A stretch of 32,000 bases of DNA from Desulfobulbus propionicus DSM 2032 (GCF_000186885.1 NC_014972.1:750001-782000); one strand, 5' to 3'. Counted from the stretch's first letter, positions 73 to 18,387 are shown. Numbers and translations: made by a program. Notes: generated from the letters alone by a model not told the origin.

Positions 73-431
73 CGCCAAACGTGAGTGTGCGCACCTACAG
101 GCCTCGCCAGCAGGCTGCTCTGAGGGAAGATCGTCAGGTGAAATCTCGCTGGAGTGTTCCATTGTCGGGTGGGGTGCGGAAATATCTTGCTATCATGGTC
201 ATTGCCGGGTTAGTGGCGGGGTTGGTCATTACCCAGTTCTTTTATGGGCAAATGATGGATATGCGAGTACAGGCGGAACAACTCCGAAGTGTAAACACTA
301 AAATCTATAACGAAAATGTCCGATTGCTGGCCTTTCGAGCCCAGTTGGCCTCCAAGAAACAAATTGTTGCCTTGGCCGGAACGAAATTGAATCTGTTTGA
401 GCCTGAAAAGGGACAGGTGCGTCGGATGTAG
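69..431 (+). CDS. ftsL: cell division protein FtsL (small bitopic coiled-coil protein)
   Basis: 120 aa. AGGAGG lies 8 nt upstream of the ATG. One TM segment (YLAIMVIAGLVAGLVITQFF) is followed by a heptad-like region (VQAEQLRSVNTKIYNENVRLLAFRAQLAS). It sits directly upstream of the ftsI homologue, as in canonical dcw clusters. Confidence 0.8.
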   Translation: MTPNVSVRTYRPRQQAALREDRQVKSRWSVPLSGGVRKYLAIMVIAGLVAGLVITQFFYGQMMDMRVQAEQLRSVNTKIYNENVRLLAFRAQLASKKQIVALAGTKLNLFEPEKGQVRRM

Positions 432-438
432 GCGGACG

Positions 439-2256
439 ATGGCGAAAACCCTGCGATCAAAGAAAAAAAGACGATGGCTCATCCCCTTTTTTGTTATTTT
501 GCTGACAGCGGCTGGAATTGTTCTGTATAGATACCCCCCCTCCCTCCAGGATATCGGCAGGATTATACAGTCTGCTGTCGGCAAAATTTCATCTCTCTCA
601 GCGGGCCAAACGCCCGCTGAACCTGTTTTAAGAGGAACGGTTTACGATCGAAAATTCAGGGAACTGGCGGTGTCGTACCGTCTGTTTTCGTTGATTGTCA
701 ATCCGGTTGAGGTGGTTGATCGGCGTAAGGCCGCTGAAGCGCTGGCCCCCTTGGTCGGCGACAAGGTGGAGAATATCGAGCTTCGGCTGAAAACCGCGCA
801 GTATTCCATGGTGCTGTCCGATGACCTCGATGCCCGCCAGGCCGAGCAGATCGCCGCCCTCCAATTGCGCGGCGTGACCTGCAAGGCCACGGAGGCCCGT
901 TTTTATCCCGGGCATACCGCTGCCTCGCATGTGCTTGGATTCATGGGTGACGGTGTCGGTCTTGCGGGCGTGGAAGGGAAGTACGATACGGTGCTGCAGG
1001 CTGGTGGATTTCGGAAAAGCAACATACCGGACATCGATTTCCAGGGCGAGGAGAGCCTGGGGCAGAAGGAAACGGACATTGTGCTCACTCTGGACATCGA
1101 CCTCCAGAGGCAACTGGAAAACCGTTTCCGGGAACATCTTGCCGCGCAAGGGTCGGAAAAGGGCATGGGATTGCTGATCGACCCGAGCAGCGGACGTATC
1201 CTCGCGCTCGTGAATCAGCCCTCGTTCAACCCCAATTATTTCTGGAAGGCCAACGAGAGCAACCGGATCAACCGGATCTACAACCATGTGCTCGATAAGG
1301 AGCTGATCAGGCCTCTTCTCGCGCGGGCAGCGGCCATCGAGCGTGAAGGGCTGGATGGGCCGGGGATACTGCCGGCCACCGTGGCTGCGCCGGATTATGG
1401 GTTCACCCCGGAACAGCTCGATGCCTTTGAGCAACAAATCCAGCTGTATGGTTCGGTGTTCGGCAACTGGGAGTCCGGACCGGCAGCGCAGGAGCGGACC
1501 GGCGCGCAACCGGTGGTTACCGGTGTTCAAGTGGGAGTGACCCTGGCGAGCCTGGTCAACGGTGGTTGGCGAATTACGCCCTATGTGGTCGATTCCATCT
1601 ACGATCATGCGACGATGAAACGCTACTCCCGCAGTAACGAGGCCACGGAGAAGATCCATGTGCTCGACCCGGCGCTGGGGGTCAAGATTCGCCGGGAACT
1701 GTTTGCCAACTGGCTGTTGGAGCAGGAAAATCTGGTCGTGTTTACTGCGGATCATGTGCAAATCCAGCCGGACAAGGACCAATACAGCCGCTATTCCATG
1801 CAGGATCTGTTCGTCGGACTGGCGCCGGCCAAGCAGCCAAAGTTTCTTTTGTTGATGGCCGTCGAGCAGGATCACCTGCTGCCTGTGGCGCAGCGGAAAG
1901 ACAATGAAAATGGGGTGTTGGAACTCATGGGTAAGGAGCTGCTCGCGGCTTTGGCCAAGGTGCCGCCGCCAGATGCCTTGCCGGAAAAACCTCCGGAAAA
2001 AAGCGAGGAAAATCTTCGCCAGTTTTTCATCAGCAAACGTCTTAATTTCAGAAATGCGCCAGGAAAAGCCAACGAACCGATTCCTCGCATGCCGCAATTG
2101 CGGGGCATGAGCCTGCGCAAAGGATTGCAGCAGATCGACAAATACAAGATGACGGTGAGGGTCAACGGCAGTGGACGGATCATCGCCCAGTATCCTCTTC
2201 CAGGACAACCTCTGACTGGGGTGGACGAATGTATTCTGACCCTGGACTCCAAATAG
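439..2256 (+). CDS. ftsI: FtsI/PBP3-like class B penicillin-binding protein homologue with degenerate transpeptidase motifs and a C-terminal PASTA domain
   Basis: 605 aa from ATG 439 (MAKTLRSKKKRRW, then a TM segment). The ORF-track start at 397 overlaps ftsL and is less likely. PBP dimerisation-domain motifs are present (RGTVYDRKFRELA, RFYPGHTAASHVLGF, GVEGKYD). Transpeptidase-domain landmarks are present (LIDPSSGRILALVNQPSFNPN, TLASLVNGG, FVGLAPAKQPKF). The last ~55 aa read as PASTA (MPQLRGMSLRKGLQQIDKYKMTVRVNGSGRIIAQYPLPGQPLTG). The expected SxxK, SxN and KTG positions are not conserved (see findings). Confidence 0.85.
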   Translation: MAKTLRSKKKRRWLIPFFVILLTAAGIVLYRYPPSLQDIGRIIQSAVGKISSLSAGQTPAEPVLRGTVYDRKFRELAVSYRLFSLIVNPVEVVDRRKAAEALAPLVGDKVENIELRLKTAQYSMVLSDDLDARQAEQIAALQLRGVTCKATEARFYPGHTAASHVLGFMGDGVGLAGVEGKYDTVLQAGGFRKSNIPDIDFQGEESLGQKETDIVLTLDIDLQRQLENRFREHLAAQGSEKGMGLLIDPSSGRILALVNQPSFNPNYFWKANESNRINRIYNHVLDKELIRPLLARAAAIEREGLDGPGILPATVAAPDYGFTPEQLDAFEQQIQLYGSVFGNWESGPAAQERTGAQPVVTGVQVGVTLASLVNGGWRITPYVVDSIYDHATMKRYSRSNEATEKIHVLDPALGVKIRRELFANWLLEQENLVVFTADHVQIQPDKDQYSRYSMQDLFVGLAPAKQPKFLLLMAVEQDHLLPVAQRKDNENGVLELMGKELLAALAKVPPPDALPEKPPEKSEENLRQFFISKRLNFRNAPGKANEPIPRMPQLRGMSLRKGLQQIDKYKMTVRVNGSGRIIAQYPLPGQPLTGVDECILTLDSK

Positions 2257-2269
2257 TCGGCGGGCGGTT

Positions 2270-5200
2270 ATGATCACCTTGGCAAAACTTGTGCAGGCCA
2301 TCGCCCCTGGGGCGAACCGGCGGCTTTCGGGAACCGTGCTCGCACAGCCTGTGACGGCGATCACCTCGGATTCACGGCAGGTCGTTCCGGGAAGCCTCTT
2401 TGTCGCCGTTCGTGGAGTAAAGACGGATGGCCGCCGCTATATTCCGGAGGCGATCGGCAAAGGGTGTCTGGCTGTGGTGGTCGATGTCGATGAGGGGGTT
2501 GATGAGTGGAATGTTCCGGTGCTCCTGGTCGACGATTGTCCAGCCGCGCTTGGTGAACTGGCCGCTGCGTGGAACGGTTATCCGGCCAGCCAGATGCAAT
2601 TGGTGGCCATCACCGGCACCAATGGCAAGACCACCTGTTCGTGGCTGATCGAGGAGATGCTGGTCGCCTCCGGCTTCCGCCCCGGAGTGATTGGAACGGT
2701 CAACTACCGCTATCACGGTGCCGACGGCCTCCATATCATCCAGGACGCCCCCCTGACCACCCCCGATCCGGTGACCTTGCAGGGATTGCTTCGCACCATG
2801 GCCGACAACGGTGTGACGCATGTGATCATGGAGGTTTCCTCACACGCCCTGCAACAGCAGCGTCTGGGCTCGACCCGCTTCGATGTGGCCTTGTTCACCA
2901 ACCTTAGCCGTGACCATCTCGATTATCACCAGTCGATGGAGGTCTATTTCGAGGCAAAGAAACAGCTCTTTCATAAGCATCTCAAGGAGCAAGGCGTAGC
3001 GGTGGTGGTGCTGGGGCCACAGGCGGAGGGGTGCGACTGGGGCGGCCTGCTGACGGCGTCACTGCCGGCGGAGCAGGTCATTCGCTGCGGTTTGCATGGT
3101 TCGTGCGAAGTGAGCGCGCATCAATTGACCCAGACCATGGAGGGGTTTCGGTGCTGCTTGCATCTGCGGGGCGCGGAGGTGAACTTTGCTTCGCCGTTGA
3201 CCGGGGAATACAATGTGCTCAATGTGCTGGCTGCGGCGGGCGTTGGACTGGGGTTGGGCCTGGTGCCGGATCGGTTTCTTGAGGGATTGGCCAGGGTGGG
3301 GCGGGTACCCGGCCGCCTGGAACGGGTTCGATTACCTGGTGAGCAGATAGGATCGGGGCCCGCTGTGTTTGTCGATTATGCCCATACTCCGGATGCCTTG
3401 GACAATGTGTTGCGCAATCTGAAAAAACTGACCACCGGACGTTTGCTTTGCGTTTTCGGTTGCGGCGGCGACCGTGATCGCGGCAAGCGGCCATTGATGG
3501 GCAGGGTTGCGGCCCAGTTGGCCGACGCGGTTGTCGTGACCTCCGACAATCCACGCACCGAGGCGCCGGAGGCCATCATCGACGAGATCGTTGCCGGTGT
3601 GGAGGCCGGCGGCAAGTCTAGGACCGACGCTTGGGCGTTGCTGAACGCTGCACAGCCGGTTGATGGTTACACCGTGATTGCCGATCGCAGGTGTGCCATA
3701 ACAGCGGCGTGCAGCCTTGCCGCTCCCGGTGACAGCGTCCTGCTCGCCGGCAAGGGGCATGAAACCTACCAGATCATCGGCACGGAAAAGCATTTTTTTG
3801 ATGATCGCCAGGAAGCGACCAACGGCCTGCTGCACTGGAACGAGCGCCATCTGCTTGCCGCCACGAGCGGCAAGGTTGCCGGCGGCACGCTCTGTCGTGT
3901 ATTGGCCTCGGTGTGCACCGATTCCCGCCAGCTGCGACCAGGAGATATTTTCGTGGCGCTCAAGGGAGAGGCCTTTGACGGGCACCAGTATATCGAAGCC
4001 GCTGCCGAACAGAGGGCCGGCGCCATTGTCGCCGAGTGGATGCCGCCACGCATGCGTCCGGAGGTTCTGTATATCGAGGTCAAAGACAGTCTGCGCGCCT
4101 TGGGCGATCTGGCAGCCTACCGACGTCGATTGCTGAACGGCACGATCAAGGTGGCGGCCATCACCGGCAGTTCGGGGAAAACCACGGTCAAGGAAATGGT
4201 GGCCAGCATCTTTGCCGAGGCGTTGCAGGGCAGCCGCACCGGAATGGACGCCGTTCTTAAAACCAGAGGCAACTTCAACAATCTGGTCGGACTGCCTCTG
4301 TCGCTGCTGCCGCTGGAGGCCGGTCACCGGCTCGCGGTGGTGGAGATGGGGATGAATGTTCCCGGCGAGATTGCCCGGCTGGTGGCCATCGCTGATCCGG
4401 ATATCGGCTGCATCAACAACGTTCACCCAGCCCATCTCCAGGGACTGGGCAGTCTTGCCGGAGTGGCTGCGGCCAAGGGAGAGCTCTTCGCCGGCATGCG
4501 GCCCGAAGCGGTGCGGGTAGTCAACCTCGATGATCCCCATGTCCGGGCGCAGGCCAAAAAATTTGCTGGCGAACAGATTGGTTTTGCGGTAACTCCTTCC
4601 GGCCGCAAATTTGGACCACAGGTCCGGGCCACCCGCCCGGACAATCTGGGTGAACAGGGCATGCGCTTTACCCTGCACATCGAAGGGTGGCGGGCGCGCG
4701 TGACCGTGCCGGTCTTTGGCGCCCACAATGTCAGCAACTGCGTCGCCGCCGCGGCCATCGCCCATGCCGCAGGTATCGGACCCGAGGTCATTGCCCAGGG
4801 CCTCCAGCGGTATGCTCCGTCGGTGGACAAGCGATTGGCGGTCACCGAACTGCCGGGAGGGCTGAAGGTCGTCAACGACGCCTACAATGCCAATCCCGCC
4901 TCGATGGCTGCGGGGTTGCGCACCGTGGCCGCCTTCGGCCACAGGGGATGCCGGCATCTGGCCGCTCTGGGCGACATGCTCGAGCTGGGTGCCGCTTCCG
5001 AAGATCTGCACGCCGGGATAGGCGCCCTGGTGGCGAGCTTGGGGTATGATTTTCTGGCCTTGACCGGGATGCAGGCGACCGTGATGGCGCGAGCCGCGAG
5101 CGCCGCGGGTATGAAGGAGGAAAACATCCGGGTGTTTGCCAATCCCCGCGCCATGGCCGACTGGATCTATCCGATGCTGGCCCGAGGGGACCTGGCCGCC

Positions 5201-5305
5201 GGCGACTGGCTGTTGATCAAGGGGTCGCGCGGCATGCGCATGGAGCAGCTCCTCGATGAACTGGAGCAACGCTTGAATAATTCAAAGAAAAACGTAACGG
5301 AATAA
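2270..5305 (+). CDS. murE-murF: fused MurE (UDP-MurNAc-L-Ala-D-Glu:meso-DAP ligase) and MurF (UDP-MurNAc-tripeptide:D-Ala-D-Ala ligase)
   Basis: Single 1011-codon frame. N-half: ITSDSRQVVPGSLFVAVRG, P-loop GTNGKTT, the DNPR motif of DAP-adding MurE (VVVTSDNPRTE), and GKGHETYQ. C-half starts near residue 520 (TDSRQLRPGDIFVALKGEAFDGHQY), with P-loop GSSGKTT, NDAYNANPASM and GDMLELG. No stop codon or start-like junction lies between the halves. Confidence 0.9.
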   Translation: MITLAKLVQAIAPGANRRLSGTVLAQPVTAITSDSRQVVPGSLFVAVRGVKTDGRRYIPEAIGKGCLAVVVDVDEGVDEWNVPVLLVDDCPAALGELAAAWNGYPASQMQLVAITGTNGKTTCSWLIEEMLVASGFRPGVIGTVNYRYHGADGLHIIQDAPLTTPDPVTLQGLLRTMADNGVTHVIMEVSSHALQQQRLGSTRFDVALFTNLSRDHLDYHQSMEVYFEAKKQLFHKHLKEQGVAVVVLGPQAEGCDWGGLLTASLPAEQVIRCGLHGSCEVSAHQLTQTMEGFRCCLHLRGAEVNFASPLTGEYNVLNVLAAAGVGLGLGLVPDRFLEGLARVGRVPGRLERVRLPGEQIGSGPAVFVDYAHTPDALDNVLRNLKKLTTGRLLCVFGCGGDRDRGKRPLMGRVAAQLADAVVVTSDNPRTEAPEAIIDEIVAGVEAGGKSRTDAWALLNAAQPVDGYTVIADRRCAITAACSLAAPGDSVLLAGKGHETYQIIGTEKHFFDDRQEATNGLLHWNERHLLAATSGKVAGGTLCRVLASVCTDSRQLRPGDIFVALKGEAFDGHQYIEAAAEQRAGAIVAEWMPPRMRPEVLYIEVKDSLRALGDLAAYRRRLLNGTIKVAAITGSSGKTTVKEMVASIFAEALQGSRTGMDAVLKTRGNFNNLVGLPLSLLPLEAGHRLAVVEMGMNVPGEIARLVAIADPDIGCINNVHPAHLQGLGSLAGVAAAKGELFAGMRPEAVRVVNLDDPHVRAQAKKFAGEQIGFAVTPSGRKFGPQVRATRPDNLGEQGMRFTLHIEGWRARVTVPVFGAHNVSNCVAAAAIAHAAGIGPEVIAQGLQRYAPSVDKRLAVTELPGGLKVVNDAYNANPASMAAGLRTVAAFGHRGCRHLAALGDMLELGAASEDLHAGIGALVASLGYDFLALTGMQATVMARAASAAGMKEENIRVFANPRAMADWIYPMLARGDLAAGDWLLIKGSRGMRMEQLLDELEQRLNNSKKNVTE

Positions 5306-6384
5306 TGTTCTATAATTTCCTCTACCCCTTTCACACCGAGCTGAGCTGGCTCAACGTTTTCCGTTACATCACCTTTCGCTCCATCGGCTGCGCGGTGACC
5401 GCCTTTCTGCTGGTGGTGATCATCGGTCCGCGATTCATCGCCTGGCTACAGAAAAAACAGATCGGCCAAGTCATCCGCGACGATGGTCCGGAGACGCATT
5501 TCTCCAAGAAAGGGGTACCAACCATGGGCGGGGTGCTGATCCTTTTTGCCGTGACCGCCTCCTCCTTGCTGTGGACCGACCTGCGGAGTGGCCTAGTCTG
5601 GTTGCTGATCGGTATCAGCTTGTTTTTCGGGTTGATTGGCTCGATGGATGACATCAAGAAGATCCGCAAGGGAAATTCGCGCGGGTTGAGTCCCAGGGAG
5701 AAATTGGCCCTGCAGGTGCTCGGGGCCGCGGTGGTGGGGATATTTCTCCTGCTGACGCCCGGCTACGACGGCATTCTCAGCATCCCGTTCATTAAGTCCT
5801 ATCAACCGGATCTGGGCTGGTGGTACCTGCCCTTTGCGGTGCTGGTGATTGTCGGTGCTTCCAACGCGGTCAATCTCACCGATGGATTGGACGGTTTGGC
5901 CGCCGGTCCCATCGTCATCACCGCCTCGACCTATTTGATTTTTTCCTATGTGGCCGGCAACGCGGTCGTGGCCAGCTATCTGCAAATTCCCTATGTTCCC
6001 GGAGCCGGCGAAGTGACCATTTTCTGCGGGGCCATGGTTGGCGCTTGCCTCGGATTTCTGTGGTTCAACTGCTACCCGGCGGAGATTTTCATGGGCGATG
6101 TCGGCTCCCTGTCCCTGGGGGGCACCTTGGGGGTTGTGTCGATCATCACCAAGCAGGAATTCCTGTTGGTGATTGTCGGGGGTATTTTTGTCATGGAGGC
6201 GATTTCGGTCATCCTCCAAGTGGGCTATTTCAAGATGACCGGCGGTCGGCGAATTTTTCTCATGGCGCCCTTTCATCACCATTTCGAAAAAAAGGGCTGG
6301 CTGGAACCCAAGGTGGTGGTCCGTTTTTGGATCGTATCCATCATTCTTGGCCTTATTGCGCTGGCAACCTTAAAGCTGAGATAA
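5305..6384 (+). CDS. mraY: phospho-N-acetylmuramoyl-pentapeptide transferase MraY
   Basis: 359 aa polytopic membrane protein. Has KKGVPTMGG, NAVNLTDGLDGLA and APFHHHFEKKGW motifs. Its start shares one base with the murEF stop (TAATG). Confidence 0.95.
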   Translation: MFYNFLYPFHTELSWLNVFRYITFRSIGCAVTAFLLVVIIGPRFIAWLQKKQIGQVIRDDGPETHFSKKGVPTMGGVLILFAVTASSLLWTDLRSGLVWLLIGISLFFGLIGSMDDIKKIRKGNSRGLSPREKLALQVLGAAVVGIFLLLTPGYDGILSIPFIKSYQPDLGWWYLPFAVLVIVGASNAVNLTDGLDGLAAGPIVITASTYLIFSYVAGNAVVASYLQIPYVPGAGEVTIFCGAMVGACLGFLWFNCYPAEIFMGDVGSLSLGGTLGVVSIITKQEFLLVIVGGIFVMEAISVILQVGYFKMTGGRRIFLMAPFHHHFEKKGWLEPKVVVRFWIVSIILGLIALATLKLR

Positions 6385-6387
6385 ATC

Positions 6388-7764
6388 GTGCAGATATCAA
6401 GAGGGACACAGGCAGTGGTGATCGGATTGGGGGCAGCCGGGCTGTCCACGGTCCGTTATCTGGTGAATCGGGGGGTGCGGGTACGGGTTTCCGATCGCCG
6501 CGCCGTGGAACAGATCCCCCCAGATACCTTGGCATTCCTCAAGCAGGCGGAGGTGGCGCTGGAAACTGGGGGACATACCGCCGCTTTTCTTGCCGGTGCG
6601 GACATGGTCATTCCCGGACCCGGCGTGCCGCTTGACCTGCCTGTATTGCAGGCCGCCCGGAAACAGGGACTGCCGGTGCTTGGCGAGCTCGCCCTCGCCG
6701 CGGGCCAGTATGCGGTTCCGGTGATCGCGGTCACCGGTTCCAACGGCAAGACCACTGTCACCAGTCTAATCGGTGAGCTGTTGCGGGCTTCGGGAAAAAA
6801 CCCCTTTGTTGGCGGCAACATAGGTACTCCCTTGCTCGACTATTTCGCCGATCCGCAGGGGTATGATGCGGTGGTGCTCGAACTGTCCAGTTTCCAGCTC
6901 GATCTGGCCGGCGCCTTCCGGCCCGATATCGGCCTGCTGCTCAATATCTCCCCTGATCATCTGGATCGCCATGGATCGTTGGAGGCCTACACCCTGGCCA
7001 AGCAGAATCTCTTTCGCCACCAGCAACTGGGCGACCGCGCCATCCTCGGCGCGGACGACCCTGTCGCCGCCGCAACACCACTGAATCCAGAGGTTGGCCG
7101 CTTCACCTTTGGCCGCGCCGAAGGATGCACGGCGCGCATTGCCGACGGACGGATTCTTCTCACCTTGATGGCCGGCGCCCTGTCCGGGAAAACCGAGTAT
7201 GTGCTCAGCGGTACTACACTCCACTCCTCGGTCAATCAGTTGAATGCCGCTGCGGCCATCCTGGCCGTTACCCTGGCCGGTTGCGAACAGGCCGGTATCG
7301 CCGAAGGGTTGAGACGTTTTGTGCCTCCACCCCACCGCATGGCCGAGGTCGCGACCATTGACGGCGTGCGGTTCATCAATGATTCCAAGGCGACCAATAT
7401 CGGGGCCCTGGAGGCTGCGCTGGCTGGTTGTGAGTCGCCTGTCGTGCTCATCGCCGGCGGTCGGGACAAGGGAAGTGATTACAGCTTGTTGCGTGAAGTG
7501 GTCGGGCGGAAGGTCAAGCATCTGGTGCTGGTGGGCGAGGCGGCTGGCCTGATGCGGGCCGCCCTGGGTTCGCTGGTTCCCACGGAAGCGGCGACCACCA
7601 TGGAGGATGCGGTGCGCAGAGCTATGACGGCGGCGGCCAGCGGCGATTTGGTGTTGCTGGCACCCGGATGTGCCAGTTTCGACATGTTTTCCGGGTACGA
7701 CGAGCGCGGCCGGGTGTTCGCCGAATGCGTCCACCAGATTGGCCAGGAACGGTTGGAGGCTTGA
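6388..7764 (+). CDS. murD: UDP-N-acetylmuramoylalanine:D-glutamate ligase MurD
   Basis: 458 aa with a GTG start 3 nt after the mraY stop. N-terminal Rossmann-like GLGAAGLS, Mur ligase P-loop GSNGKTT, and NISPDHLDRHG. Canonical position after mraY. Confidence 0.93.
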   Translation: MQISRGTQAVVIGLGAAGLSTVRYLVNRGVRVRVSDRRAVEQIPPDTLAFLKQAEVALETGGHTAAFLAGADMVIPGPGVPLDLPVLQAARKQGLPVLGELALAAGQYAVPVIAVTGSNGKTTVTSLIGELLRASGKNPFVGGNIGTPLLDYFADPQGYDAVVLELSSFQLDLAGAFRPDIGLLLNISPDHLDRHGSLEAYTLAKQNLFRHQQLGDRAILGADDPVAAATPLNPEVGRFTFGRAEGCTARIADGRILLTLMAGALSGKTEYVLSGTTLHSSVNQLNAAAAILAVTLAGCEQAGIAEGLRRFVPPPHRMAEVATIDGVRFINDSKATNIGALEAALAGCESPVVLIAGGRDKGSDYSLLREVVGRKVKHLVLVGEAAGLMRAALGSLVPTEAATTMEDAVRRAMTAAASGDLVLLAPGCASFDMFSGYDERGRVFAECVHQIGQERLEA

Positions 7765-7765
7765 G

Positions 7766-8002
7766 ATGGCCCTGATTCGTATGTGCTGTGTCTGTCACAG
7801 GGTGGAGCAGGAGGGCGGTTGGCGGCAGGTTTCCGAGCTGTCAGTGGACGCTGTGGTTTCCCATGGCTACTGTCCCGACTGTTTTGCCGAAGTCATGATG
7901 GAAATACGAGCGGCCATCGGTAATCGAGTGGTTCAGACGTTGCGGCCCGTGCACGATCCGGGTTGGTCTCGTTTGGCTGGGCGAAGGACCCCATGCGTTT
8001 GA
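7766..8002 (+). CDS. small four-Cys (CxxC...CPxC) zinc-ribbon-like protein of unknown function, in the slot normally held by ftsW
   Basis: 78 aa from ATG 7766, 1 nt after the murD stop. GGAGG (7754-7758) lies 7 nt upstream. The 3' end overlaps the murG start by 10 nt. Sequence is MALIRMCCVCHRVEQEGGWRQVSELSVDAVVSHGYCPDCFAEVM... It is not hydrophobic, so it is not an FtsW remnant. The ORF-track version starting at 7670 lies inside murD and is rejected. Confidence 0.6.
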   Translation: MALIRMCCVCHRVEQEGGWRQVSELSVDAVVSHGYCPDCFAEVMMEIRAAIGNRVVQTLRPVHDPGWSRLAGRRTPCV

Positions 8003-9087
8003 TCGTTGCCGGCGGCGGAACCGGCGGGCATCTCTTCCCCGGCATTGCCGTGGCTACCGCCATGCGGGAACGGGTTGCGGCCACTCGGGTGCTGTTCATC
8101 GGTACCTCGCGCCTGCTTGATCAGCAAGCCTTGGCTGGTTGTGGCTTTGAGCTGGCTGGGCTGCAATGCGGCGGAGTCAAGGGCCTTGGAACGATGCAAC
8201 GGCTTCGCAGCCTGTTACGTATGCCTGGGGCCGTGCTGGAGGCGATGCGGATGCTGCGGCAATTCAATCCGGATCTCGTTTTTGGCGTGGGCGGCTATGT
8301 GACGGGTCCGGTGTTGCTGGCCGCGCGGATGTTGGGGGTGCCGATCGCCATTCATGAGCAGAATTCGGTTCCGGGCATGGCTAATCGGTTGGCCGGTCGG
8401 CTGGCGGACAAAGTGTTTATTTCCCTGCCTTGCGTTCCCCCTTTTCCGCCGGCGAAGACCGTGCGCACTGGAAATCCGGTGCGCAGGGAGATCCTCGCTG
8501 CCGCCTCTGAAAAAACGCCTTGGCCTGAGCGGTCAACCACCCTTCTGGTGTTGGGCGGCAGCCAGGGGGCGCACCGGGTCAACCTGTTAGTGATGGAGGC
8601 CATGGAGCAGCTGGCCAGGCAGGGGAGAGCGTTGCACCTGATTCATCAAACAGGGGGGGCCGATGAAGAACAGGTGCGCACCTGTTACCACAAACTGGGC
8701 ATTGATGCCGAGGTGACGGCCTTTATCCGTGACATGGCCAGTGTCTATGCCCGAGCCGACCTGGTGGTATCCCGAGCCGGCGCCACCACCCTGGCCGAAT
8801 TGGCGGTCATGGGGCTGCCGGCGCTGTTGATCCCCTATCCGTACGCCGCCGATGATCACCAGGCAACCAATGCGGAATATTATGTAAAAGGCAGTGGTTG
8901 CAGGATGTTGCGTGAATCAGGATTGACCGGTGAAATTCTTGCCCGATCGATCAGCGAATACTTGCAGAACCCGGAAGAGTTACATACAATGTCGGCCAAC
9001 ATGAAGACCATGGCAATGCCGGATGCGACCAACCGGATCGTGGATGAATGTTTGCAGCTTGCTACCCGAAAGGGGTGGCATGGATGA
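7993..9087 (+). CDS. murG: undecaprenyldiphospho-muramoylpentapeptide beta-N-acetylglucosaminyltransferase MurG
   Basis: 364 aa from ATG 7993 (MRLIVAGGGTGGHLFPGIAVA, the canonical MurG N-terminus). C-terminal GT28 motifs are present (SRAGATTLAELAVMGLPALLIPYPYAADDHQATNA). Confidence 0.93.
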   Translation: MRLIVAGGGTGGHLFPGIAVATAMRERVAATRVLFIGTSRLLDQQALAGCGFELAGLQCGGVKGLGTMQRLRSLLRMPGAVLEAMRMLRQFNPDLVFGVGGYVTGPVLLAARMLGVPIAIHEQNSVPGMANRLAGRLADKVFISLPCVPPFPPAKTVRTGNPVRREILAAASEKTPWPERSTTLLVLGGSQGAHRVNLLVMEAMEQLARQGRALHLIHQTGGADEEQVRTCYHKLGIDAEVTAFIRDMASVYARADLVVSRAGATTLAELAVMGLPALLIPYPYAADDHQATNAEYYVKGSGCRMLRESGLTGEILARSISEYLQNPEELHTMSANMKTMAMPDATNRIVDECLQLATRKGWHG

Positions 9088-9117
9088 ACCCCGACGACTT
9101 CGACAGCAGGCGCCTTC

Positions 9118-10503
9118 ATGTATAGAAAAACCAAGCATATCCACTTCGTCGGCATCGGCGGCATCGGCATGTCGGGCATTGCCGAGTTGTTGTTGAGCCT
9201 TGGCTATCGGGTAAGCGGCTCCGATCTGCGGGTCACTGACATCACCCGGCGGCTGGAACACCTGGGGGGCGTGATCCACCAGGGGCACGATGCGGCCTGG
9301 GTGGCCGGCGCGGACGTGGTGGTGACCTCCACAGCCATTGCCGCCGACAATCCCGAGGTCGTTGCCGCCAAGGAAGCGCATGTGCCGGTGGTGCAGCGGG
9401 CAGAAATGCTGGCGGAGCTCATGCGGCTGAAAAAATACGGCATCGCCGTTGCTGGCAGTCATGGCAAAACTTCCACCACCTCGATGGTGGCGGCCATTTT
9501 GGCCGAAGCCGGATTGGATCCGACGGTGGTGGTCGGCGGCAAGGTGCATGGGTTGGGCAGCAACGCCAGATTGGGCGAGGGCGAGTTTCTGGTGGCCGAG
9601 GCGGACGAGAGCGACGGATCGTTTCTCAAGTTGTCACCGGTGATCGAAGTGGTGACCAACATCGATCTGGAACACCTTGATTATTATCGTGATATTGATC
9701 ATATCAAGGACATGTTCCTTGAATTCATCAACCGTCTCCCCTTCTATGGGGTGGCCGTGGTCTGCATCGACAACGATCACATCGCCCAACTGCTGCCGCG
9801 GATTCAGAAGCGGATCGCCACCTACGGACTAACGGAACAGGCCGATCTGCAGGCTGTCAAGATCATCTCCGGCAACGGTACCTCCCAATACACGGTACGC
9901 AGCCGCAAGGAAGAACTGGGCGTCATACGCCTCAACCGTCCGGGAAAACATCTGATTTACAACAGTTTGGCTGCGGTCAGCGTGGGTCTGGAGCTGGAAA
10001 TCGATTTTTCGGTGATCGCCAGGGCGCTGGAGAATTTTCAGGGCGTGCAACGCCGCCTCCAAATCAAGGGTGAGGCCGCCGGCGTACTGGTGGTTGACGA
10101 CTACGGCCATCATCCCACTGAAATCAGGGCAACCCTGGATGCGGTGCGTGAAGGCTGGCCGGATCGCCGGGTGGTGGTGGCCTTTCAGCCGCATCGGTAC
10201 AGCCGTACCAAGGGATTGTTCGCCGAGTTTACCACCGCCTTCCGCCGGGCTGATGTCCTGGTGCTGACCGACATCTACGCAGCCGGCGAATCGCCAATCG
10301 AGGGCGTCACCTCCGAGCGGCTCCAGGAAGCGATCAAGCAGCGCGGCCAGCGCCAGGCCCATTTCATCCCCCAATTGGTTGAACAGCCCCAGGTCCTGAT
10401 GCCGTTACTCCAACCCGGCGATCTTCTGCTTACCCTAGGGGCGGGCAACATTGTGCGTGCCGGTGAGCAGGTGCTGGACCTGCTCAAGGAGCACTCGGGA
10501 TGA
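9118..10503 (+). CDS. murC: UDP-N-acetylmuramate:L-alanine ligase MurC
   Basis: 461 aa. Has HFVGIGGIGMSGIAELL, P-loop GSHGKTSTT, NIDLEHLDYY and DDYGHHPTEI. Confidence 0.95.
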   Translation: MYRKTKHIHFVGIGGIGMSGIAELLLSLGYRVSGSDLRVTDITRRLEHLGGVIHQGHDAAWVAGADVVVTSTAIAADNPEVVAAKEAHVPVVQRAEMLAELMRLKKYGIAVAGSHGKTSTTSMVAAILAEAGLDPTVVVGGKVHGLGSNARLGEGEFLVAEADESDGSFLKLSPVIEVVTNIDLEHLDYYRDIDHIKDMFLEFINRLPFYGVAVVCIDNDHIAQLLPRIQKRIATYGLTEQADLQAVKIISGNGTSQYTVRSRKEELGVIRLNRPGKHLIYNSLAAVSVGLELEIDFSVIARALENFQGVQRRLQIKGEAAGVLVVDDYGHHPTEIRATLDAVREGWPDRRVVVAFQPHRYSRTKGLFAEFTTAFRRADVLVLTDIYAAGESPIEGVTSERLQEAIKQRGQRQAHFIPQLVEQPQVLMPLLQPGDLLLTLGAGNIVRAGEQVLDLLKEHSG

Positions 10504-10507
10504 TGCG

Positions 10508-11428
10508 ATGAACAGTCAACAGCGTGACGAACTGGCGGCGTTGTGCCCATTGATCCACTGGGATGCCGATATGGCCGCCTACTCGACTTTCCGGGCCGGT
10601 GGAACCGTGGAAGCGCTGGTGGAACTCAGCGACGCCGATCATCTGGCCGCGGTGTTGCAATGGTTGCATGCGCGGCGAATTCCCTGGCAGGTCATTGGCG
10701 GTGGTTCGAACGTCCTGTTTACCAGCCGACGCCATGAAGGCGTGTATATTCGGCTGCATGGTTCGGTTCGGGACATCGACTGCGACCGGGAGAACAACGG
10801 TGAATGCAGGGTGCGGGTACACGCCGGTTGCAGCCTTGGCGCCCTGGTGGGCTGGTGCATGAAGAACAGCTTGCGCGGTCTGGAATTCATGGCCGGCATT
10901 CCTGGATCGGTCGGCGGAGCCATTCGTATGAACGCCGGCGCCTTTGGCCATGCAATAGGAGAGGTTGTTGACACGGTGCGCTACGCCACCGAATGGGGTG
11001 AAATGGTTGAGGCGCGCCGGGAGGAGGTGCAATTCGCCTACCGAAGTACGTGTCTGCCGGGAGAACCCCAGGCCAAGATGTTGATCACCGGAGGCGTGTT
11101 CCGGCTCCAGACGGGCGATGGTGCGCAGATCGCCCGACAATGCCGGGAAATCATCGCTCAACGCAAACAGAAACAGCCTGCGGGGATCGGTTCGGCCGGT
11201 TCCTTTTTTAAAAATCCGACGGGAGACTTTGCCGGCCGGCTGATCGAGGTGGCAGGCTTGAAGGGCTTGGCGGTGGGCAAGGCCATGGTTTCGCCCAAGC
11301 ATGCCAATTTTATCGTCAATACGGGCGGAGCGGTGCCCGAGGATATCGTGGGCTTGATGGAAAAGGTCCGGCAAGAGGTCCTGCGGCAATCAGGCGTATT
11401 ATTGGAGCCTGAAGTCCATATCTTTTAG
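10508..11428 (+). CDS. murB: UDP-N-acetylenolpyruvoylglucosamine reductase MurB
   Basis: 306 aa from ATG 10508, 5 nt after the murC stop. FAD-binding-domain motifs are present (TFRAGGTVEALVE, IGGGSNVLF, GIPGSVGGAIRMNAGAFG), as is the C-terminal SAGSFFKNP. The ORF-track start at 10451 overlaps murC and is less likely. Confidence 0.9.
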   Translation: MNSQQRDELAALCPLIHWDADMAAYSTFRAGGTVEALVELSDADHLAAVLQWLHARRIPWQVIGGGSNVLFTSRRHEGVYIRLHGSVRDIDCDRENNGECRVRVHAGCSLGALVGWCMKNSLRGLEFMAGIPGSVGGAIRMNAGAFGHAIGEVVDTVRYATEWGEMVEARREEVQFAYRSTCLPGEPQAKMLITGGVFRLQTGDGAQIARQCREIIAQRKQKQPAGIGSAGSFFKNPTGDFAGRLIEVAGLKGLAVGKAMVSPKHANFIVNTGGAVPEDIVGLMEKVRQEVLRQSGVLLEPEVHIF

Positions 11429-11446
11429 GCAGGGAATTGAGCGCTG

Positions 11447-12385
11447 ATGGCGATTTATACACCCCGCCAGGCACCGTCCCGATCCCAACGAGGGGCCAAA
11501 AAGTCCACCTGGACCGATAGGCTGCAGGGCACTCTGCCACGCAAGCAGACCAAGCCGGTTCCATTCCGGCCGCAGGCGCTGGTTGGCGGCAGCCAGCGGG
11601 CGGGGAAGTGGAAGCGGTGGGTCAAAAACATTGTTCTGTTCCTGGTGCTTCTTGGTGTTGCTGTGGGGATGTTGTGGCTGTCGGCTCGACTGCTCATGCG
11701 GTCCAATGTATTTCGGCTGTCCGATATCCGGATCACCGGGGAGCAGGTCGTCACCGAACGGCAAGTTCTTGATTTGTCCGGGCTTCAGCACGGTGGCAGC
11801 CTGCTGCGATTCAACGTCAAGGCCGCCGAGGCTCGTATCGCCACCCATCCGTGGGTTGAGCGGGCAGAAATCAAGACCCAGTGGCCGTCGGCGGTGGAAA
11901 TCAGCGTCATAGAGCACCAACCCTTTGCCCTGGCAAATCTGGAGTCGGGCAAGGAGAAGCGATTGCGCTATGTCAGCCGGTCGGGTTTTCTGTTTGCCGA
12001 TGCCGGCCAGGGGCAGGAGTTGGATTTACCGGTGATCACCGGGGTTGTGGCCCAAAAGGATGTTGCATCCGATGTGTTCGTCAAGGGCGGCTTGGCCGAG
12101 GCGGCGTATAACCTTTTGCAGCTCGCCGCCAAGGGAAACGCCATTCTGCCGATCCAGGCGATCTCGGAAGTACATATTGACCAGAAATTGGGGCTTGTCC
12201 TCTATCTGGTGGATCGACCCTTTCCCGTGTACTTCGGGGCCGATCGCTTGCAGACCAAATATTATCGGCTGGTTAGGGTTCTTGAACAGTTGTATGCAAA
12301 GAAACAGGTTGATGCCGTTAAAGAAATTCGAATGGATTATTTAGATGATAAAGTCTTGGTTACCGGAACCCAAATTGACGGATGA
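11447..12385 (+). CDS. ftsQ: cell division protein FtsQ (POTRA domain)
   Basis: 312 aa. Basic cytoplasmic tail, one TM (IVLFLVLLGVAVGMLWL), a POTRA-like segment (FRLSDIRITGEQVVTERQVLDLSGL...ARIATHPWVERAEIKTQWPSAVEISVIEHQP), and a position directly before ftsA. Confidence 0.85.
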   Translation: MAIYTPRQAPSRSQRGAKKSTWTDRLQGTLPRKQTKPVPFRPQALVGGSQRAGKWKRWVKNIVLFLVLLGVAVGMLWLSARLLMRSNVFRLSDIRITGEQVVTERQVLDLSGLQHGGSLLRFNVKAAEARIATHPWVERAEIKTQWPSAVEISVIEHQPFALANLESGKEKRLRYVSRSGFLFADAGQGQELDLPVITGVVAQKDVASDVFVKGGLAEAAYNLLQLAAKGNAILPIQAISEVHIDQKLGLVLYLVDRPFPVYFGADRLQTKYYRLVRVLEQLYAKKQVDAVKEIRMDYLDDKVLVTGTQIDG

Positions 12386-15004: not shown

Positions 15005-15080
15005 CGCTTCGAAGCGGCCCTTGGCCGTATTCGTCAAGGTTGCACCGAATCCCCATTTTTTCCTGTCTTGGTTTGTCCCG

Positions 15081-16823
15081 GTGTCCGCACATCTGACCCA
15101 GGAAACCGGTACAGTCCGGAAGAAATGGAAAGACCGGCTGCCGGTCGCCCTGCTCTATCCCAATGTCTACCCGGTGGCCGTGTCCAATCTGGGGTATCAG
15201 TTGGTCTACACCCTGCTCAATCAGCAGGAGGGGGTTGTTTGCGAACGGTTCGTCTATCCCGATCAGGACCAACCGCTCCGCTCGCTGGAATCCTCCCGGT
15301 TGTTGAGCGATTTTCCCCTGGTCATGGGGTCGATCAGCTTCGAGCACGATTACCCCAGGCTGACGGCCATGCTGGCGGCCGGAGGCATCCCCCCGTTCGC
15401 CGCGGACCGTTCTCCACAGGTATGCGCTGGCAATCCTTTGGTGATCCTGGGCGGGGTCGGCGTGTTCATGAATCCCGAACCGCTGGCTGTTTTTGCCGAT
15501 CTGATGGTTATCGGCGAAGCGGAACCGCTGTTGGAACCACTGATCGAATCCCTGAACGAGTTTGCCGCCATCCCCAGGGAAGAACTACTGGTCACCATCG
15601 GGTCCACGCTTCCTGGTTGCTATGTGCCCGGCATGTATCATTTTGTGTACGGGGATAAGGGCGAAGTCCGTCGGATAGAGCCCAAGGCGGGATTACCGGA
15701 ACGGGTGACCAAGGTCATCGCCCCGGCAATGGCGCGCGCCGCCCATTCGACCCTGCTGTCGCCCGAGGCAGAACTGGGCATGTACATGGTCGAGCTGGGA
15801 CGCGGTTGCAGCCGGGGCTGCCGTTTCTGCGCGGCAGGGTTCATTTACCGGCCACCCCGGCTGTGGACGGCCGAGGCCATCCTGGCCGGATTGGCGGATC
15901 GACCGGAGCGAATCAACCGCATCGGGCTGCTCGGCATGGAGATGGCCAGCAGTGAGACCGTGGACCGCATCGCCGCGTATCTGCGCGAACATGGCTGCGC
16001 GCTTTCCTTCTCCTCCCTGCGAGCCGATCGGATCACGGCACAGACCCTGGAACTGCTGGCCGCCTCCCGCCTCAAGAGCGTGGCCATCGCCGCCGACGGC
16101 TGCTCCGAGCGGTTGCGAACCCTGATCAACAAGGGACTCGGGGAAGAGGATCTGCTCGGCGCTGCGGAACGGCTGGTCGCGGCCGGCATTTTCCACCTCA
16201 AACTGTATGTGATGATCGGTCTGCCCACGGAAACCCAGGACGATCTGGACGAGCTCATCCGCCTGGTCGATCGGCTGCTGGCCCGAATCCTGCCGGTGGG
16301 CCGGTCGAGAAAACGGTTGTCCGAACTGACCCTGTCGATCAACTGTTTCGTGCCCAAAGCCTGGACCCCTTTTCAGTACTGCTCCTTTGGCGGCCTGGCC
16401 CCTGCCGAGGCGAAGGAGGAGCGGATCGAGCCGGCCCTGGCGGGCCTCAAGGAGAAAATTCGCTATCTGCGAAAGATGTTGGGCAACATGGCCAATCTCC
16501 ATCTCAAATTCGATCATCCCGACCAGGCCCTGCAGCAGGCGGTGTATTCCCGTGGCGACCGCCGCCTTGGTCCGGCCCTGCTGGATATCGGCTGCGGCAG
16601 GTTGCCGTTCAAACAGGCCCTGCGGCGCCACCGGGTCGATCCCTGGGAGTATGCCGTCCGGCCCCGGCACCAGCACGAGCTGATGTGTTGGGAGGTGGTG
16701 GACCATGGAATCCGTCCGGGATTTTTGTGGGAAGAGTATGCGCGCGCCGTGCGCGGTCTCGCTACCCCTCCATGCCAACCGGCGGTCTGCCGCCGTTGCG
16801 GTGTCTGCCATGAAGCCAAGTAA
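15081..16823 (+). CDS. B12-binding-domain-like radical SAM protein (resembles the uncharacterised TIGR03960 family)
   Basis: Radical SAM cluster motif in ELGRGCSRGCRFCAAGFIYRPPR (CxxxCxxC). N-terminal VALLYPNVYPVAVSNLGYQLVY and PLVILGGVGVFMNPEP fit a B12-like domain. The Cys-rich C-terminus is CQPAVCRRCGVC. The start is uncertain: GTG 15081 is chosen, TTG 15021 is the longest ORF, and neither has a good SD. Confidence 0.8.
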   Translation: MSAHLTQETGTVRKKWKDRLPVALLYPNVYPVAVSNLGYQLVYTLLNQQEGVVCERFVYPDQDQPLRSLESSRLLSDFPLVMGSISFEHDYPRLTAMLAAGGIPPFAADRSPQVCAGNPLVILGGVGVFMNPEPLAVFADLMVIGEAEPLLEPLIESLNEFAAIPREELLVTIGSTLPGCYVPGMYHFVYGDKGEVRRIEPKAGLPERVTKVIAPAMARAAHSTLLSPEAELGMYMVELGRGCSRGCRFCAAGFIYRPPRLWTAEAILAGLADRPERINRIGLLGMEMASSETVDRIAAYLREHGCALSFSSLRADRITAQTLELLAASRLKSVAIAADGCSERLRTLINKGLGEEDLLGAAERLVAAGIFHLKLYVMIGLPTETQDDLDELIRLVDRLLARILPVGRSRKRLSELTLSINCFVPKAWTPFQYCSFGGLAPAEAKEERIEPALAGLKEKIRYLRKMLGNMANLHLKFDHPDQALQQAVYSRGDRRLGPALLDIGCGRLPFKQALRRHRVDPWEYAVRPRHQHELMCWEVVDHGIRPGFLWEEYARAVRGLATPPCQPAVCRRCGVCHEAK

Positions 16824-18387
16824 ACCGTCCGGAGTCCATCGCCGGATAGCCCAATTCAACGGACAGCGGGGCACCGTCGGCCGCTGGATCGAGTGGATCC
16901 GCAGGAATATCCGCCTCAAGCCGGTGCGGCTTGATTTTTCCCTGCTCTGGCGGCGTCTGCGCTTCCGGGACGAAGCCAATGCCTTGCTGCCCTTCGAGCT
17001 GGTCAAGTATTTTTCCTTCACCTCGCTGCTGCTGATCCTGATCGCCTCCTTCATCCTATCGTGGGTGATCGCCAGCAATGCCAAAAGCGTGCTCCTGCAG
17101 CGCAGTGAGGCCTATTCGCGGTTGTTTGCCGACAATCTCAACCGTCAGGTGTTCCTCCAATTCGTCCTGCCCACCGTGGTGCGCTACGGCCGCATCGCCT
17201 TGTCCGAGCAGGATCAATACGAGCGCCTCGACCAGATCGTGGCCAACATCACCCGCGGTATGAACATCGAATCGGTGACCATCTTCGAACCGGTGCAGAA
17301 CAGGGTGGCCTATTCGACCATTCCCGAATTGATGGGCAAGCGGGACATGGGCGGACTGGAATACCAGAAAGCGGCCAAGGGAGAAAGCAATTCGGTGCTG
17401 ATCAGTGGCGGTTCCCTGTTCAGTCTGTTGCCTGGAGCGGCCGAGGTGTTCTGTACCCTGAAGACCTATGTGCCGTTTCGCCAGGAAAACAAGCTGGGCG
17501 AGCGGACCGGCGAGATCATGGGGGTCATCGAGGTGGTGCAGGACCTGTCCGAGGACCTTGAAGCCATCATCAGCCTCCAGGCCAGGGTGATCATGCTTTC
17601 CCTGATCATCATGTCCATTTTATTCGCCATTCTCAGCATGATCGTGGTGCGGGCCAACCGGATCATGGCCGAACGGGCCGAAGAGCGGCTGCGCCTGGAG
17701 GAGCAGCTGAACGAGGCTCAGCGGCTGGCATCCCTCGGCAAGATGGTGGCGGCGGTGTCCCATGAGATCAAGAATCCCCTGGGCATTGTCCGCTCCACCG
17801 CCGAGATCCTGGGCAACCGGATCAGCAAGGTGGCTCCGGGCAACGAACGGCTGGCCAATATCATCGTCGAGGAAACCTCGCGTCTCGACGCCATTGTCCG
17901 CGAATTTCTCGATTTTGCCCGGCCGCGCGAGGTCGACAAAGTCCCCGGTTCCCTCAACGGGGTGGTCGAGCGGCTGCTGCGGTTCATGGAGCCGGAATTT
18001 CAGCAGAAGGCGGTGCGGCTGGAGGTTCGGCTCGATCCGAACCTGCCCGAGATTCCCTTCGACAGTGAACAGATCTATCAGGTGCTGCTCAATATCGTAT
18101 TCAATGCCATTCAGGCCATGCCCCAGGGCGGTGACCTGCTGCTGAACACCATGCTGGAACCCGGAGGCGGCGCGGTGGCGGTCGAGGTGGCCGATAGCGG
18201 TATCGGCATTCCTCCGGAAAAATTGGAACAGATCTTCACCCCCTTCTATACCGATAAAAATCGCGGCACCGGTCTTGGTTTGTGCATCGCCAAGAGCATC
18301 GTCGAGAAGCATCAGGGGGTGATCGGGGTCAAGAGCACGCCGGGCGAGGGCAGCATTTTTCGCGTCACCCTGCCGGTGCTGGTCTGA
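16810..18387 (+). CDS. membrane sensor histidine kinase (two TM segments, ~190-aa extracytoplasmic sensor, HisKA, HATPase_c)
   Basis: 525 aa from ATG 16810, overlapping the rSAM stop by 14 nt. TM1 is LLLILIASFILSWVIA and TM2 is VIMLSLIIMSILFAILSMIVV. H-box AAVSHEIKNPLG, N-box LLNIVFNAIQAM, G-boxes DSGIGIPPE and GTGLGLCIAKSIV. Confidence 0.88.
   Translation: MKPSKPSGVHRRIAQFNGQRGTVGRWIEWIRRNIRLKPVRLDFSLLWRRLRFRDEANALLPFELVKYFSFTSLLLILIASFILSWVIASNAKSVLLQRSEAYSRLFADNLNRQVFLQFVLPTVVRYGRIALSEQDQYERLDQIVANITRGMNIESVTIFEPVQNRVAYSTIPELMGKRDMGGLEYQKAAKGESNSVLISGGSLFSLLPGAAEVFCTLKTYVPFRQENKLGERTGEIMGVIEVVQDLSEDLEAIISLQARVIMLSLIIMSILFAILSMIVVRANRIMAERAEERLRLEEQLNEAQRLASLGKMVAAVSHEIKNPLGIVRSTAEILGNRISKVAPGNERLANIIVEETSRLDAIVREFLDFARPREVDKVPGSLNGVVERLLRFMEPEFQQKAVRLEVRLDPNLPEIPFDSEQIYQVLLNIVFNAIQAMPQGGDLLLNTMLEPGGGAVAVEVADSGIGIPPEKLEQIFTPFYTDKNRGTGLGLCIAKSIVEKHQGVIGVKSTPGEGSIFRVTLPVLV

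Follow-up and report, generated by a model that had tools for sequence, protein, structure and literature searches.

The dcw cluster and a small gene between murD and murG

In walled bacteria, FtsW and FtsI together count as the essential synthase of septal peptidoglycan, and ftsW, encoding a glycosyltransferase of the SEDS (shape, elongation, division and sporulation) family, normally lies between murD and murG in the gene cluster for division and the cell wall (dcw). This article concerns a stretch of 32,000 nucleotides from Desulfobulbus propionicus DSM 2032 (GCF_000186885.1, NC_014972.1:750001-782000), referred to in its full length as the window, in which that slot is held by a small open reading frame (ORF) for a predicted zinc-ribbon protein with four cysteines (Cys4), denoted ZR, and in which the FtsI-like protein of the same cluster lacks its catalytic motifs.

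By Pfam assignment, the genes of the cluster follow in the order FtsI-like, MurE-MurF fusion, MraY, MurD, small ORF, MurG, MurC, MurB, FtsQ, FtsA and FtsZ. The murD gene (6388..7764, + strand, as are all features of the window described here), for the UDP-MurNAc-L-Ala:D-Glu ligase with its MurD-like_N, Mur_ligase_M and Mur_ligase_C domains, ends in a TGA at 7762-7764, and murG (7993..9087), for the lipid II synthase with Glyco_transf_28 and Glyco_tran_28_C domains, starts with an ATG at 7993, leaving an interval of 228 nt. The small ORF spans 7766..8002: a single spacer base (7765) separates the murD stop from its ATG (7766-7768), a Shine-Dalgarno (SD) sequence, GGAGG, lies 6 nt 5′ of that ATG within the 3′ end of murD (7755..7759), and its TGA (8000-8002) is reached inside murG, the two reading frames sharing 10 nt (7993..8002, ATGCGTTTGA). 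Its product has 78 residues, begins MALIRMCCVCHRVEQEGGWRQVSELSVDAVVSHGYCPDCF and reads in full MALIRMCCVCHRVEQEGGWRQVSELSVDAVVSHGYCPDCFAEVMMEIRAAIGNRVVQTLRPVHDPGWSRLAGRRTPCV. No promoter- or terminator-like site was found on the + strand between 6300 and 9200, and the overlap points to probable translational coupling of murG with the small ORF. A preliminary description of the window had given these coordinates, the GGAGG and the 10-nt overlap, all of which match the sequence, and its placing of the ORF within the coupling chain of the operon is supported by the 1-nt gap after murD and the overlap with murG.

Absence of ftsW from the dcw slot and of the FtsI catalytic motifs in Desulfobulbia

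Desulfobulbus belongs to the class Desulfobulbia of the phylum Thermodesulfobacteriota, and the nearest relatives of the MurG encoded here are from Desulfobulbus spp. (71-81% identity). That ftsW is absent from four related genomes is already published: the Desulfobulbaceae D. propionicus, D. japonicus and two Ca. Electrothrix yielded no ftsW, ftsN or zipA, and they have rodA alongside pbpA and mre genes (Geerlings et al., 2021, PMC7873302). The extent of the absence was surveyed in 80 species-representative loci around murG (numbered with the prefix L), on each of which MurD, MurG and FtsW were mapped. They comprise 45 evaluable Desulfobulbia loci (from Desulfobulbus, Desulfurivibrio, Desulforhopalus, Ca. 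Desulfobia, Ca. Electrothrix and Electronema), 32 outgroup loci with a readable murD-murG interval and 3 outgroup loci that are too short, the outgroups including Desulfobacterales, Geobacter, Syntrophales, Binatia, Myxococcota, Magnetococcales and Nitrospira. Neither tblastn with seven outgroup FtsW proteins nor Pfam on the major ORFs revealed a SEDS gene in the window, and none of the 45 Desulfobulbia loci has one in the slot or within ~10 kb on either side, whereas a full FtsW occupies the interval (~1.1-1.9 kb) in all 32 readable outgroup loci. Since the published report and all 45 Desulfobulbia loci agree, the lack of ftsW in the dcw slot, correctly noted for the window in the preliminary description, is a clade-level trait and not peculiar to this genome.

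The murD-murG interval measures 3-340 nt in most Desulfobulbia loci and 4-5.5 kb in three loci of cable bacteria (L019, L020, L023). In the one of these three that was examined, L023 (Ca. Electrothrix laxa, 4549-9965), it is filled with HEPN, DDE-transposase, AAA_21 and DUF4276 genes, the vacated ftsW slot having become a place where mobile or defence genes land.

The FtsI-like gene (397..2256) encodes a class B penicillin-binding protein (PBP) with pedestal and PASTA domains which, according to Pfam, NCBIfam and motif alignment, lacks the SxxK, SxN and KTG motifs and would thus be a pseudo-transpeptidase. Pfam recognises PBP_dimer, a C-terminal PASTA domain and, only as a 33-residue fragment, Transpeptidase, and the NCBIfam scores fall far under every equivalog cutoff (115 vs 688). 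Orthologues were scanned with regular expressions and aligned by MAFFT with seven outgroup sequences. All seven aligned outgroup proteins have GST(F/M/L/I)K at about residue 290, SSN at about 345 and KTG at about 490, and the scan found the three motifs at the expected spacing in nearly all 25 outgroup copies, whereas every Desulfobulbia copy recovered (loci L008-L059) has unrelated residues or gaps at the three sites; the protein of the window, for instance, has DKELIRP where outgroups read PGSTFKP. Judged by these motifs, every dcw FtsI-like protein examined from Desulfobulbia is a pseudo-enzyme. The claim that FtsI is motif-less and that the cluster encodes neither half of the FtsW-FtsI pair in active form can accordingly be widened from one genome to the class, with no SEDS gene in the slot and the FtsI motifs lost. 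As a separate observation, the pedestal domain has been kept, and a C-terminal PASTA domain on such a protein is unusual in a diderm.

Conservation of the small gene

The identical 78-residue protein is encoded on 34 public contigs, including GCA_029267735.1 (JAJUHU010000001.1) and metagenomes of hydrocarbon-degrading cultures, and is called as a gene in six of six public assemblies among those listed. Of the 45 species-level Desulfobulbia loci, 23 have an orthologue between murD and murG, as do 23 of 80 contigs recovered by a metagenome scan (query, an alignment of 12 closer ZR sequences); carriers include the cultured Desulfogranum japonicum and Desulfobulbus alkaliphilus DSM 24258 (L014), as well as a closed 5.08-Mb Desulfobulbus genome. 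The arrangement is retained along with the protein: most orthologues start at or across the murD stop (ATGA) and end within murG or no more than ~15 nt from it, an SD-like purine run precedes most of them, and an ATGCG..TGA overlap with murG is common to those of the Desulfobulbus group.

Six residues, C7, C10, W19, C36, P37 and C39, are invariant in the 24-sequence syntenic alignment and likewise in an alignment of 45 sequences. His33 is not conserved, entire subclades reading SYGFCP at this point, and because of this replacement the metal ligands are taken to be the four Cys of CxxC...CPxC and not the His. The HGYCPDC pattern highlighted at the outset thus stands as to CxxC and CPxC, which are conserved, but the His of SHGYCP is not a conserved ligand.

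Selection was estimated by the Nei-Gojobori method for the core (residues 6-46), using comparisons in which synonymous divergence (dS) is not saturated. The ratio of nonsynonymous to synonymous divergence (dN/dS) is about 0-0.3 overall in the core, with values of 0.08 for the pair L026-L028, 0.10 for L014-L015 and 0.11 for L011-L013, and the pair L034-L051 differs at synonymous sites alone (proportions of synonymous and nonsynonymous differences, pS 0.49 and pN 0.00). Past residue 46 the tail is near-neutral (pN/pS ratio 0.69 vs 0.29-0.39 in the core). These patterns show the small ORF to be a genuine gene under purifying selection. The preliminary description had made a functional role hinge on synonymous-biased conservation in related genomes, and just such conservation is seen, with orthologues at about half of the Desulfobulbia loci. 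In one metagenomic locus (L087, 3736-3936, + strand; GCA_945787325.1), a second small ORF of 66 codons, with no Pfam hit, stands between murD and the Cys4 gene.

Predicted fold and family of the protein

The AlphaFold2 (AF2) model built from the 45-sequence alignment has a mean predicted local distance difference test (pLDDT) score of 81, with 89-96 over residues 1-50 and lower confidence beyond. In it, short strands at residues 3-7, 12-15, 18-21 and 30-34 carry both cysteine knuckles, and a helix extends over residues 37-59 (7874..7942). Two CxxC-type knuckles on beta-hairpins, as predicted here, are characteristic of the zinc-ribbon fold, and the core of the ribbon as delimited by the alignments, AF2 and hhalign corresponds to residues 7-39 (7784..7882), comprising the CxxC knuckle, the invariant Trp and the CPxC knuckle. 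ZR is therefore modelled as a soluble protein of ~60-78 residues with a Cys4 ribbon (CxxC-x8-W-x16-CPxC) followed by a helix. It has no predicted transmembrane segment (maximum over 19-residue Kyte-Doolittle windows, 0.76), and its core is acidic to neutral (isoelectric point, pI, ~5).

No Pfam or NCBIfam model describes the family. A Pfam scan at E<=10 gave as best hit DUF7569 (14.7 bits against a gathering cutoff of 27, E 0.033), with weak hits in 2-3 of the 45 members; no NCBIfam model matched at E<=1, and neither a sequence profile against the PDB (E>=0.3) nor Foldseek-PDB (E>=0.97) returned anything significant. A search with the single sequence finds only the identical protein and one weak match; the family could be reached only with the syntenic alignment. 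An exhaustive HMMER search of 1.84 billion cluster representatives puts its size at 1943 clusters with E<=1e-3, of which 226 have E<=1e-10. All of the best 150 among these 1943 representatives are 52-126 residues long, the seemingly longer members inspected (9 of 14 sequences retrieved) are N-terminal over-calls, and those members that bear a name are called “hypothetical protein”.

Relation to a C-terminal module of signalling proteins

The preliminary description likened the cysteine pattern to a C-terminal module of signalling proteins, and this module is real. It is an uncurated sequence of ~45 residues with the consensus GLLPICxxCKKIRDDxGYWxQxExYIxxHSEAxFSHG[IY]CPxC; with a consensus sequence as query, 84 proteins of 55-89% identity were retrieved and aligned. 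Comparison of this alignment with that of the dcw-slot family (45 sequences) by hhalign gives a probability of 96.5% and an E-value of 7.8e-10 over 51 aligned columns. The metagenome scan moreover yields a continuum, with intermediates such as GLLPICCVCKKVRDD...FSHGYCPDCFKKAMQEL that join “CCVC” and “HGYCPDCF..M.EI” with “KKVRDD”. A GLLPIC-type leader accompanies the motif in 34 of the 80 metagenome loci, and these leader-bearing motifs lie 8-26 residues from the stop of proteins of 167-592 residues, save a few cases truncated by the contig. Of ten module proteins subjected to Pfam, eight have N-terminal Response_reg, PAS, MASE3, CHASE or GAF domains with no further output domain, and two have no hit. 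Large module-bearing proteins came from the metagenome scan only, none being found in the 1.39 Mb of fetched loci that were searched. From these sequence relationships, ZR is a stand-alone derivative of an uncurated signalling domain that occupies the output position.

One locus (L091, 3604-4216, + strand) has a PAS_3 ORF overlapping a 71-residue module ORF by 11 nt, and other genes on that contig are also split. In all probability this is a PAS-Cys4 fusion broken by a frameshift, and part of the canonical modules that stand in databases as “stand-alone” are therefore assembly artefacts.

Inheritance, loss and other genomic contexts

A neighbour-joining tree of MurG unites the Desulfobulbia in a single clade, with ZR-positive loci in both main sub-branches of that clade and absences distributed patchily. 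As the subgroups of ZR mirror the MurG clades, the gene would have been inherited vertically, and its occurrence in both sub-branches makes it most likely that the ancestor shared by the sampled Desulfobulbia, which had no dcw ftsW, already carried ZR in the slot. At least eight losses followed, and the separate lineages without the gene include cable bacteria, the Desulforhopalus clade and Desulfurivibrio sp. D14AmB, further ZR-less loci being L018, L025, L029, L032, L056 and L059. D. elongatus DSM 2908 (L009, 9890-10010) preserves a decayed copy, whose first knuckle has mutated to MGCIDH and which has lost W19 and the CPxC knuckle through a deletion of ~110 nt, the tail still being alignable to L011 and L013. 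The ZR-less lineages likewise have no ftsW in the slot and a dead FtsI. Because about half of the relatives without a slot ftsW lack ZR or have it in decay, ZR cannot be an obligatory replacement for FtsW; the earlier statement that it “takes its place” is right as to position but not as to function, for a protein of 78 residues with no transmembrane segment that is lost in about half of the ftsW-less relatives.

Stand-alone members of the family also occur elsewhere: one lies 3′ of a rhomboid gene, another beside flagellin and hybrid histidine kinase genes, and in nine metagenome loci, which represent at least two lineages (DnaA 65% identical), a member follows dnaA by 24-53 nt. The dnaA-ZR pair is a two-gene unit bounded by oppositely oriented genes, and the dnaA-linked subfamily has the form MRTVCCVCRRVK...SHGFCPECFDKTM (L158, 1098-2686; also L139, L126, L170, L171, L138, L125, L119, L120, L176 and L177). 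The dcw and dnaA contexts are both core cell-cycle operons, which is suggestive and possibly a coincidence.

Other features of the cluster

Just 5′ of the FtsI-like gene lies an ORF of 120 codons (69-431, + strand) whose product has a single transmembrane helix, then a coiled-coil-like stretch, and matches FtsL weakly (TIGR02209, E 0.038). The literature describes ftsL as apparently missing from many Desulfobulbaceae, and this ORF may be a divergent FtsL overlooked so far. The murE-murF fusion is a single ORF of 1011 codons (2270-5305, + strand) with two complete sets of Mur ligase domains, and occurs also in D. japonicum (1028 residues) and another Desulfobulbus (1004 residues); chimeras of the murE-murF type are a topic in PMC10214165. 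Further along, ftsQ directly follows murB with no ddl between them (10451-12385, + strand), which differs from the dcw order of Escherichia coli, and directly 3′ of ftsZ lie genes for a radical SAM protein (Radical_SAM_N2; 15021-16823, + strand) and a histidine kinase (16705-18387, + strand), both without the Cys4 module.

A proposed role and its alternatives

We favour, at somewhat better than even chances, the view that ZR is a conserved ancestral Cys4 gene in the vacated ftsW slot, often lost, whose product is an accessory modulator and no replacement for FtsW. ZR would be co-transcribed and translationally coupled with murD and murG, so that its product would appear in step with the Mur and divisome proteins. 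Because many sensors have the homologous module as their sole output domain, the ribbon most likely presents a small, partner-binding effector surface, and the stand-alone form might then act on the envelope or division machinery as a non-essential modulator or accessory factor that is constitutively “on”. From the literature, some other synthase, RodA-PBP2 or class A PBPs for example, would have to make the septal peptidoglycan of this clade. Several points weigh against such a role: the frequent losses show that any part ZR has in division is dispensable; the unrelated contexts of its relatives (rhomboid, flagellin/kinase, dnaA) mean that the dcw position may say little on function; and a literature search on the module motif found nothing relevant, so that the function of the parent module gives no guide.

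The most serious competitor, though clearly less probable than an accessory modulator, is a general effector or regulator that binds some core component of the cell (RNA polymerase, the ribosome, nucleic acid or a protein of the cell cycle, for instance) and for which the dcw cluster is only a convenient site of expression. That the module is the output of many sensor types, and that its stand-alone copies turn up in several unrelated contexts, the dnaA-ZR unit of at least two lineages included, is what such a protein would lead one to expect. It sits less well with the retention of the dcw slot through deep divergence (MurG at ~50% identity) in tight coupling to murD and murG, with the lack of a match to known nucleic-acid-binding families in Pfam, NCBIfam, PDB or Foldseek, and with an acidic to neutral core.

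Compensation for the lost FtsW-FtsI activity, with ZR as an adaptor that, at the Z-ring, recruits or activates the dead FtsI scaffold or else another synthase (RodA-PBP2 or a class A PBP), we consider improbable. ZR does lie exactly in the ftsW slot, apparently since the ancestor that lost ftsW, its layout in the operon implies co-expression with mur and fts genes, and with FtsI dead in all Desulfobulbia copies examined some rewiring must exist. Yet about half of the lineages with neither FtsW nor an active FtsI have no functional ZR (cable bacteria, the Desulforhopalus clade, the Desulfurivibrio isolate, and D. elongatus with its decayed copy), division evidently proceeds without it in cable bacteria and D. 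elongatus, the protein is predicted to be cytoplasmic and has no membrane anchor, and no fusion or Rosetta-stone link to division proteins exists among the best 150 of the 1943 representatives.

Still less probable is an iron site or thiol redox switch, of the rubredoxin or Zn-release kind, that would tie wall and division output to redox in an anaerobe. The CxxC...CPxC knuckles, ~25 residues apart, resemble those of rubredoxin, which are spaced by ~29 residues, and the weak, non-significant structural matches include the Zn(Cys)4 sites of PerR and Zur. Against this, hhalign gives a probability of 2% with rubredoxin (approximate query), Pfam reports no Rubredoxin hit, the rubredoxin Gly and aromatic core are missing, and in sensor proteins the module is at the output and not at the input.

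Finally, a non-functional ORF, either a remnant of ftsW or a spacer kept for the translational coupling of murG, might account for the near-neutral tail (pN/pS ratio 0.69), an end constrained by the murG start and the many relatives that join murD straight to murG, but is effectively refuted by six residues invariant in 24 orthologues, core dN/dS values down to 0.0-0.1, the absence of similarity to FtsW, the homology to a widespread domain and the confident AF2 prediction.

Returning to the accessory modulator, a bolder version of it, which we rate as a long shot, would make the ribbon an undescribed effector that docks on a core cell-cycle component. The dcw and dnaA copies would then be dedicated cell-cycle modulators, and once FtsW and the catalytic activity of FtsI were gone, the dcw copy might have helped to rewire septal synthesis, for instance through a link that ties the Mur/MurG supply of precursors, or a synthase of the RodA-PBP2 type, to the FtsZ/FtsA ring.

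Significance

Desulfobulbia, cable bacteria included, keep FtsZ, FtsA, FtsQ and all Mur enzymes without a dcw ftsW and with a dead dcw FtsI, and so present a natural experiment in which a septum is built without the canonical synthase. Among the loci examined, ZR is the sole clade-specific gene added within the dcw operon, and it reveals a large uncurated Cys4 family (~1900 clusters at 50% identity) that is the sole output module of many sensors with REC, PAS, GAF, MASE3 and CHASE domains. The operon-embedded, stand-alone ZR of the cultured Desulfogranum japonicum and Desulfobulbus alkaliphilus offers a simple route to the binding partner of the module. In the literature searched, no report was found of how far the loss of ftsW extends through the class or of a concurrent loss of all FtsI catalytic motifs, nor of the Cys4 gene in the slot or its link to the large signalling module.

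Comparison with known systems

The account by Geerlings et al. (2021, PMC7873302) covers four genomes, takes FtsI as catalytically active and does not deal with the small gene or the Cys4 family; the present analysis extends it to 45 loci and adds the loss of the FtsI motifs and, for the small gene, its conservation and homology. With FtsW (SEDS, PF01098) itself ZR shares only its genomic position. The outgroup FtsW proteins in that slot have 367-412 residues, whereas ZR, at 78 residues compared with ~370-410, has no transmembrane helices and no sequence similarity to them; it cannot polymerise lipid II and is no FtsW substitute. A remnant of ftsW was also rejected directly, blastp and tblastn of seven outgroup FtsW against the ZR protein and the gap DNA giving only noise.

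Rubredoxin (PF00301) was rejected as well, with an hhalign probability of 2.2% against D. vulgaris rubredoxin (for which an approximate query sequence was used), no match to PF00301 among the 45 ZR members at E<=10, and an alignment devoid of the Gly that follows each knuckle in rubredoxin and of its aromatic core. Generic two-knuckle zinc ribbons have in common with ZR, as predicted, two Cys-x2-Cys knuckles on beta-hairpins, and the weak, non-significant matches are to ribbons of this kind: the N-terminal ribbon of Nmd3, eL42/L44e, the structural Zn(Cys)4 of PerR/Zur, and haloarchaeal DUF7569/DUF7558.

The closest likeness is to the signalling module, with which ZR shares CxxC-x8/9-W-...-(S/T)(H/Y)G(Y/F/I)CPxC(F/Y); it conforms to the full spaced motif CxxC-x8-9-W-x14-20-(S/T)(H/Y)G(I/Y/F)CPxC. 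The module lies at the extreme C-terminus behind a sensor or receiver domain, in REC, PAS, MASE3, CHASE or GAF proteins of 186-592 residues, whereas the ribbon of ZR starts at residue 7, and in place of the KK(I/V)RDD and HS.A.F signatures ZR has HRVEQEGG and DAVV, at columns that vary across the dcw-slot family. Unlike the module, then, ZR is a stand-alone protein that starts five residues before its first Cys, with neither the coiled-coil/GLLP leader nor the KKIRDD and HSEA signatures, and it has a shorter loop between the knuckles and a C-terminal helix of its own.

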